The notes beneath the pieces are model-generated. The model did no database searches and was not told the origin of the DNA. It saw only the letters and a program-made list of their open reading frames with translations. DNA of 24,000 bases, taken from Methanocaldococcus sp. GTDB lineage: Archaea > AGJL01 > Methanococci > Methanococcales > Methanocaldococcaceae. This document shows, piece after piece, positions 6,378 through 6,720 of the stretch. Position 1 is the first letter of the stretch. The number at the start of each line of letters is the position of its first letter. The position numbers were made by a program, and so were the translations under genes. The stretch lies in NCBI GenBank assembly GCA_039833665.1, contig JBDOKN010000030.1, forward strand, positions 1 to 24,000. Reading direction: 5' to 3'.

Positions 6378-6720
6378 CCATTAGTTGTCGCTAAGAAACT
6401 CTGCTTTAGGGCGGTGATGAATTAAGGGAGGTGGGTGGGACAAGCATAATTTTTATATCCTCGAAACAGAATACTAACTATTGCCCCCAATCCACGTTAT
6501 TATGGGCGGGATTCAAGCGAAATCAAAGATTTCGCTACCCGAAGCTTCGCTTCGGTCTCGAAAATCCCGCCGCTGGGGGCTAATGGTTGGGAGAAGGTAG
6601 CCCCGAGTCCCGTAAGGGACAGGGGTAGTGGCTTTGACGGAGCCGGGGAGAGTAGCTTTAAAGCTCTGCCCTCCCGAAACTCCGCCCTTTAGGGCGGAGA
6701 ACCGTCATTAATGGAATCCT
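6378..6720 (+). ncRNA. unassigned GC-rich, highly structured RNA locus (one ~340-nt RNA, or a ~75-nt RNA plus a ~235-nt RNA); strand tentative
   Basis: This is a GC-rich island in AT-rich intergenic DNA.
Perfect helices:
- 6483-6489/6574-6580
- 6505-6513/6563-6571
- 6516-6524/6528-6536
- 6539-6545/6549-6555
- 6576-6582/6598-6604
- 6607-6611/6616-6620 (GUAA loop)
- 6635-6640/6702-6707
- 6680-6687/6692-6699
- 6378-6384/6708-6714

The plus strand is favoured by the GNRA loop, by G.U pairs and by the T-rich run 6721-6735 directly after the last helix. The minus strand is not excluded. No known family motif was found. Confidence 0.6.
6450..6459 (+). promoter_or_regulatory. TATA-box-like element (TTTTTATATC) inside the GC-rich RNA locus; it doubles as a U5 termination signal
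   Basis: This is the best match in the region to the methanogen box A TTTATATA. The 7-bp helix starting at G6483 lies ~24 nt downstream, which is the normal TATA-to-TSS spacing. Confidence 0.35.

Follow-up and report, generated by a model that had tools for sequence, protein, structure and literature searches.

The locus at positions 6378-6720 was analyzed within the window, which is the whole stretch of 24,000 nt of DNA and belongs to a metagenome-assembled genome (MAG) of Methanocaldococcus sp. (protein MEO2117011.1), M. jannaschii being a separate comparison genome. It lies in a 644-nt spacer between a KamA-like radical SAM gene (4276-6147, - strand) and leuS (6792-9620, - strand). The GC content, measured in 200-nt windows, was 0.49 at 6401-6600 and 0.42 at 6601-6800, versus approximately 0.3 around the locus, and higher values were found in the window only in the SRP RNA (13429-13746). 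This profile agrees with the preliminary description of the locus, which had named the SRP RNA and 6378-6720 as GC-rich islands. The + strand folded at -141 kcal/mol, with a z-score of -5.4 against shuffles, and the - strand gave a z-score of -4.9; a check of the sequence found every helix of that description where it had been placed. The two small ORFs of the locus had no Pfam match, and their frames were interrupted in other copies of the element described below. The folding z-scores and the ORF/Pfam check thus bore out the claim of a densely structured, non-coding locus with no credible ORF, and a small-protein reading was dropped for the same two reasons as regards the ORFs.

A unit of 330 bp was delimited within this interval by comparison with related copies, and its features are as follows.

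6375-6378, + strand: TTAC target abutting the left end (five of five copies with a left end), which would be the TAM of TnpB on an empty site
6379-6708, + strand: whole non-autonomous IS200/IS605-type element (PATE-like), 330 bp, defined by similarity among six copies from CATTA to GTCAT, with unrelated flanks
6398-6416, + strand: left subterminal hairpin, degenerate in the window (ACTCTGC-TTTA-GGGCGGTG) as judged against the other copies
6426-6445, + strand: conserved G-rich block GGGAGGTGGGTGGGACAAGC, downstream of the left hairpin and upstream of the TATA box, with almost no variation across five copies
6452-6459, + strand: TATA box TTTATATC of a predicted internal promoter, separated by 23 nt from the G that opens helix 1, a geometry common to six copies
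6483-6580, + strand: 5' domain of the putative RNA, composed of an outer helix (6483-6489/6574-6580), a second helix (6505-6513/6563-6571), and hairpins at 6516-6536 and 6539-6555, with compensatory changes
6596-6699, + strand: 3' domain with tnpB 3'-end homology and compensatory pairs, including a bipartite helix (6600-6604/6622-6626 plus 6607-6620, GUAA loop)
within 6596-6699, + strand: further hairpins of the 3' domain at 6630-6644 and 6645-6675, and the right-end hairpin at 6680-6699
6635-6640, + strand: pairs with 6702-6707 as the 5' side of a long-range helix (UGACGG/CCGUCA), formed in 92% of cells
6700-6708, + strand: right-end tail AACCGTCAT, ending with GTCAT, beyond which the copies diverge at once
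6709-6726, + strand: flank and would-be guide TAATGGAATCCTTCTTTA, placed by the layout of tnpB omega-RNAs
6727-6732, + strand: T6 run 19-24 nt beyond the element, where archaeal transcription might terminate

The orthologous spacers showed this unit to be an insertion. In loci L121-L123, which have the same gene order and a methyltransferase 100% identical to MJ0638 of M. jannaschii, the spacer between leuS and MJ0634 is 371 nt long and lacks the GC-rich block; this is the orthologous site in M. jannaschii. With the block excised in silico, the window sequence AATTAC joined to TAATGGAATCC aligned with the M. jannaschii sequence GATTGT joined to TAATAAGACC. In Methanocaldococcus sp. FS406-22 (CP001901.1; locus L127, 2291-3000), the orthologous leuS/radical-SAM spacer is 710 nt long and carries at the same spot an unrelated sequence of approximately 0.4 kb, which had no Rfam match and contains internal direct repeats (ATGAGNCTATAG..TTGAGG) and a 12-bp inverted repeat (GGACTTTCGCAG/CTGCGAAAGTCC). 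The leuS/radical-SAM spacer looks like an insertion hot spot.

Other copies of the unit were found at different genomic sites. One (L045) lies between radical SAM and phosphoribosyltransferase genes in Methanocaldococcus sp. 28A (CP187540.1), at approximately 741.7 kb, and two (L126 and L125) lie on vent metagenome contigs; the further loci L128/L129, L130/L131 (the same site as L125), and L132 were reached via spurious small ORFs on the element. The alignment comprised six copies, 78-91% identical to each other. The flanking genes of two copies (L045 and L130) were scanned and were housekeeping genes, no additional copy was found elsewhere in the 24-kb window, and searches of viral and plasmid collections gave no match to the element. 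The locus is a mobile insertion, so that its earlier reading as a cellular gene gives way to a unit with IS200/IS605-type ends that is present at other genomic sites. Two of the copies (L045, 5925-5975; L128, approximately 225-270) have an extra segment of 45-48 nt with two small hairpins right after the left hairpin; the segment is missing from the window, L126, and L130, and its sequences differ while the hairpins are kept.

The ends of the element were examined in the six-copy alignment. The alignment starts with CATTA straight after TTAC in all five copies with a left end, and five of the six copies end with GTCAT, the sixth (L128) having GTTTG. Neither inverted termini (CATTA.../...GTCAT are not complementary) nor a target duplication (TTAC is on the left, but each copy has a different sequence on the right) was observed in this alignment. 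In L126 and L045, the left hairpin is perfect (CACCGCCC-TTTA-GGGCGGTG) and is preceded by AAAG; at the right end, GAAA is followed by the hairpin CTCCGCCC-TTTA-GGGCGGAG, and the left and right subterminal hairpins resemble each other. Because of the TTAC flank, the fixed end, the similar subterminal hairpins, and the lack of inverted ends and duplication, the end architecture is of the IS200/IS605 type. IS608 of Helicobacter pylori also has TTAC as its target and AAAG before its left hairpin, and the window family resembles it in being inserted 3' of TTAC and, in intact copies, in having AAAG 5' of the left hairpin. In contrast to the protein-less element ending with GTCAT, IS608 carries tnpA and tnpB and has TCAA as its right cleavage motif. 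The 5' arm of the left hairpin in the window (6398-6404) is destroyed by a 3-nt deletion and substitutions, from which we infer that the window copy is probably no longer mobile, being no longer a substrate of a transposase. The right hairpin is damaged in L132.

To describe the conservation of the fold, 73 proposed pairs were scored over the six copies. Standard pairing was observed in 94.2% of cells, compared with 39-53% in controls in which the partners were slid by 1-3 columns. Thirteen pairs (17 cells) were changed on both sides, a level reached in 0 of 500 shuffles and compared with 1-3 two-sided changes in the slid controls; as the six copies are kin, these counts represent a modest number of events, and part of the covariation signal stems from a few of them. 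The fold is thus kept with compensatory changes in related genomes, and the helices are real and under structural selection at the RNA level. In the right hairpin of L128, CC is replaced by AG and GG on the opposite strand by CT, and in the GUAA hairpin, G-C/U-A is replaced by A-U/C-G. Both long helices of the 5' domain show covariation, and in L045, where the two inner hairpins are gone, the helix around them persists with different base pairs. Of the six copies, five preserve the long-range helix UGACGG/CCGUCA, the exception being L126, which pairs at only four of six positions; in L132 both strands are altered (GG to AA, CC to U.U). Because 6635-6640 lies in the loop of hairpin 6630-6644, the helix 6635-6640/6702-6707 may form either a pseudoknot or an alternative closure of the three-way junction. 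Conserved G.U pairs, including 6600.6626, favor the + strand, in line with the strand preferred in the preliminary description. The pairing of the ends proposed there (6378-6384/6708-6714) fared differently: it joins a flanking base and the first bases of the element with the last base and the other flank, and it is attributed to chance because it is absent from the other copies. An alternative pairing of AUGGUU (6583-6588) with AACCGU (6700-6705) was rejected, as it was not kept elsewhere in the alignment as judged by eye.

Next, the locus was compared with known RNA families. No Rfam family reached its gathering score at the locus, with RNase P, SRP, tRNA, introns, riboswitches, and CRISPR checked, confirming that it is not RNase P, SRP, or tRNA. 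At permissive thresholds, 6595-6700 (+ strand) matched RF02656 (sot0042) with 30.5 bits and an E-value of 3.9e-6 (gathering score 88), and the hairpin at 6680-6699, and only that hairpin, matched positions 88-107 of RF00062 (HgcC) with 16 bits (gathering score 50); these were the sole below-threshold Rfam matches. The locus has in common with both families a helix with a GA bulge (CCCCGA-GUCCC...GGGAC-A-GGGG) and a terminal hairpin, CNCCGCCC-UUYA-GGGCGGNG, but differs in the middle hairpins and in the tail (AACCGUCAU versus GAGGAGGUCAG), with scores far under gathering. The sot0042 RNA is transcribed in the sense direction at the 3' end of a tnpB gene of the IS1341 type, and its right-end hairpin is also present in HgcC (PMC4615843).

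A genome scan with the hairpin pattern linked this module to tnpB more directly. Among the matches listed, which were mostly from unrelated bacteria, 120 loci were fetched, and in many of these the hairpin closes ORFs of approximately 340-430 aa that end with PAL*, the TAG stop lying in the loop; most of these ORFs have TnpB-like motifs. The sequence CYCCGCCC-TTTA-GGGCGGRG is identical at the ORF ends of several loci (L006, L017, L036, L042, L061, L090, L094, L106, and others) from hosts including Kitasatospora, Dactylosporangium, Pantoea, Alloalcanivorax, and Methanotrichaceae, and is thus conserved across phyla. In a Lentimicrobium MAG (L051, 2800-4500), the hairpin occurs eight times on both strands within 1.6 kb, as a REP-like array. 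In a Methanothermococcus okinawensis MAG (L013, 5440-5580), a GC-rich structured stretch of approximately 130 nt, which contains CGAGUCCGUCGGGACAG and ends with CTCCGCCC-TTTA-GGGCGG, stands alone among ribosomal protein genes, between rpl29 and a SUI1-like gene; no tnpB lies close to it, and it is a possible further example of an orphan right-end RNA.

The closest comparison was provided by a Desulfurococcales MAG (L039), in which a tnpA-like ORF is followed by a 420-aa ORF of the PAL* type, whose relatives carry PF01385 and PF07282 and are annotated as TnpB. The 3' end of this tnpB matched sot0042 with 48.1 bits and HgcC with 43.8 bits (gathering score 50), so that sot0042 and HgcC are right-end RNAs of tnpB; both HgcC and L039 have GGTCAG at the position equivalent to the GTCAT end. 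A covariance model built from the 3' domain of the window family only (R1, alignment A5) matched the same 3' end over its full length, with 51.6 bits and an E-value of 1.5e-9, and the order of helices is identical in the two. The window frame APSPVRDRGSG...SAL*, a residual of the form ...VAPSPVRDRGSG...SAL*, corresponds to TPSPVWDRGNG...PAL* of L039; this tnpB-like frame is non-coding, because it is broken in other copies. Judging from these sequence comparisons, 6596-6708 is derived from a tnpB 3' end/omega-RNA module, and the earlier statement that the function would still be unknown no longer holds for the right half. Neither tnpA nor tnpB was found in the 24-kb window or beside L045 or L130. 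A protein search with the L039 TnpB returned Desulfurococcales relatives only, a search with the 44-aa pseudo-tail returned nothing, and a HMMER scan with the 80-codon frame returned only the spurious small ORFs on further copies and one repetitive protein; a close parent with a similar tnpB tail was thus not found by the protein and HMMER searches. TnpB-like ORFs are presumably present in M. jannaschii as well. M. jannaschii has relatives of the IS607-type transposase (PMC6188088).

The sequence upstream of the 5' domain is consistent with an internal promoter. The TATA box is followed by exactly 23 nt and then by T/G/C at 6482-6484, a geometry that is the same in all six copies; the TATA box itself is mutated in L128. 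Mapped promoters of M. jannaschii have TWTATATA with a spacer of 23 ± 2 nt, and the initiator preferred by its stable RNAs is T(-1)/G(+1)/C(+2) (PMC2699501), as found at 6482-6484. The predicted start, G6483, is also the first base of the outer helix, which argues for a discrete RNA of approximately 226 nt (6483-6708), made from its own methanogen-type promoter and extending up to the right end. The left part of approximately 100 nt (6379-6482) of the interval in the preliminary description, the transposon left end plus promoter, is probably not RNA. The guide of a tnpB omega-RNA is supplied by the flanking DNA on the 3' side of the right end (PMC10055086). The T6 run belongs to the flank and not to the element, the flanks of the other copies being different, and it could end the transcript with an extension of 18-24 nt. 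Matches of the would-be guide elsewhere in the window were at chance level only.

Taken together, these data make it likely that the locus derives from an IS200/IS605 element, being a PATE-type form without protein genes that carries an omega-RNA scaffold for a TnpB made elsewhere. In one Methanocaldococcus lineage, the element was inserted 3' of TTAC between leuS and the radical SAM gene, and it has kept the left-end hairpin (now decayed), the predicted internal promoter, and a putative RNA gene of approximately 226 nt (6483-6708). Transcription would start at G6483 and cross the right end into the flank, giving a product composed of the scaffold and a guide of approximately 16-24 nt (6709 onward). 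This RNA would be bound by the TnpB nuclease of another element, and cleavage of the TTAC-flanked empty site by the complex after excision would let recombination bring the element back (homing/retention). A Y1 TnpA acting in trans may move intact copies as single-stranded DNA.

Elements of this kind are already known, as the omega-RNAs often encoded by PATEs can act only in trans (PMC10055086); the Methanocaldococcus family has not been described before and is absent from Rfam. Transcription has been reported for PATEs, which consist of fused left and right ends and encode no protein, and the PATE RNA of Halobacterium is VNG_R0052 (PMC4615843). The window family resembles PATEs in its subterminal hairpins at both ends, its lack of an ORF, its fixed short target motif, its many solo copies, and its RNA module from the right end, whereas it differs in having its own TATA promoter, in a large extra 5' domain (6483-6580) that brings the element to 330-380 bp, and in its hyperthermophilic Methanocaldococcus hosts. 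Compared with the omega-RNA (reRNA) of TnpB, the putative scaffold likewise lies at the right end on the strand running from left to right, has a 3' module homologous to the tnpB 3' end, would be approximately 226 nt long, and has a long-range helix just before the would-be guide. In contrast, no tnpB overlaps the window scaffold, and the guide is putative here.

A first alternative is a dead relic: the element would be what an internal deletion left of an IS605-type transposon, now in decay and without useful transcription, and its fold would persist only through the youth of the copies and the former service of the sequence to tnpB and its RNA. The damage to the left hairpin in the window and to the right hairpin in L132, the mutated TATA box and changed right tail of L128, and the failure to find partner genes in the window, beside L045 and L130, or by the protein searches are all in its favor. 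It would, however, have to accommodate 13 pairs restored by second-site changes, some of them in the 5' domain, which is needless for the transposase, as well as promoter geometry kept in six of six copies and 94% pairing despite a divergence of 10-20% between copies. We therefore regard such decay as unlikely, while giving it some weight.

A scaffold that has escaped the transposon is a still less probable alternative, and we give it little credence. An immobilized, self-promoted omega-RNA with its 5' domain would here direct a TnpB encoded in trans, or a relative lacking nuclease activity, to a target in the host or in a virus. If true, it would constitute an independent guide-RNA gene, intermediate between transposon RNAs and CRISPR-like or regulatory systems.

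Slightly fainter is the chance that the RNA has been domesticated as an immobile, self-promoted scaffold that serves the host rather than transposon retention, in which case it could be a guide for a nuclease-dead TnpB relative (TldR-like) or an antisense/regulatory RNA. The element's own promoter fits such a role, as does a window copy that looks immobilized with its RNA part intact, and over-expression of PATE and sot RNAs affected growth in Halobacterium (PMC4615843). Against this, the element is not conserved at orthologous sites, M. jannaschii being empty and FS406-22 different, its would-be guide flank had no better-than-chance match in the window, and it has no known partner protein.

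The proposal of the preliminary description, an orphan cellular structured RNA of the Hgc type with an unknown housekeeping role, perhaps one of the M. jannaschii orphans, has next to no chance of being correct, since its support from the GC-rich, strongly folded sequence, the lack of an Rfam family at gathering score, and the hairpin in common with HgcC is outweighed by the presence/absence polymorphism and differing genomic sites, the transposon ends and TTAC target, the origin from a tnpB 3' end, and, already on its own, the empty orthologous spacer of M. jannaschii, because of which it is not a cellular orphan RNA gene of that organism. The Hgc hunch was right in one respect, namely the HgcC hairpin at 6680-6699 and the sub-threshold sot0042 match, and wrong as regards an orphan cellular gene.

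On the preferred reading of a PATE-type element with an omega-RNA scaffold, a GC-rich "orphan RNA" of an AT-rich hyperthermophile is accounted for as a transposon-borne guide-RNA scaffold, and the view that HgcC-type RNAs from GC-content screens are right ends of tnpB elements is supported. The window element opens no new kind of biology; it would supply Rfam and genome annotators with a missing family of omega-RNAs that are compact, adapted to heat, and made from their own promoter, and the natural covariation in this family could be of use in working out which RNA features archaeal TnpB nucleases require.

Two further observations were made in the window. At 4240-4275, it lacks a 280-aa gene of unknown function (the MJ0635 position), which in M. 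jannaschii and FS406-22 sits between the radical SAM and pyridine-nucleotide oxidoreductase genes. A 49-nt direct repeat is present at 12591-12639 and 12704-12752, its units being 88% identical and 113 nt apart, at and just upstream of the start of an IMP cyclohydrolase-like gene.
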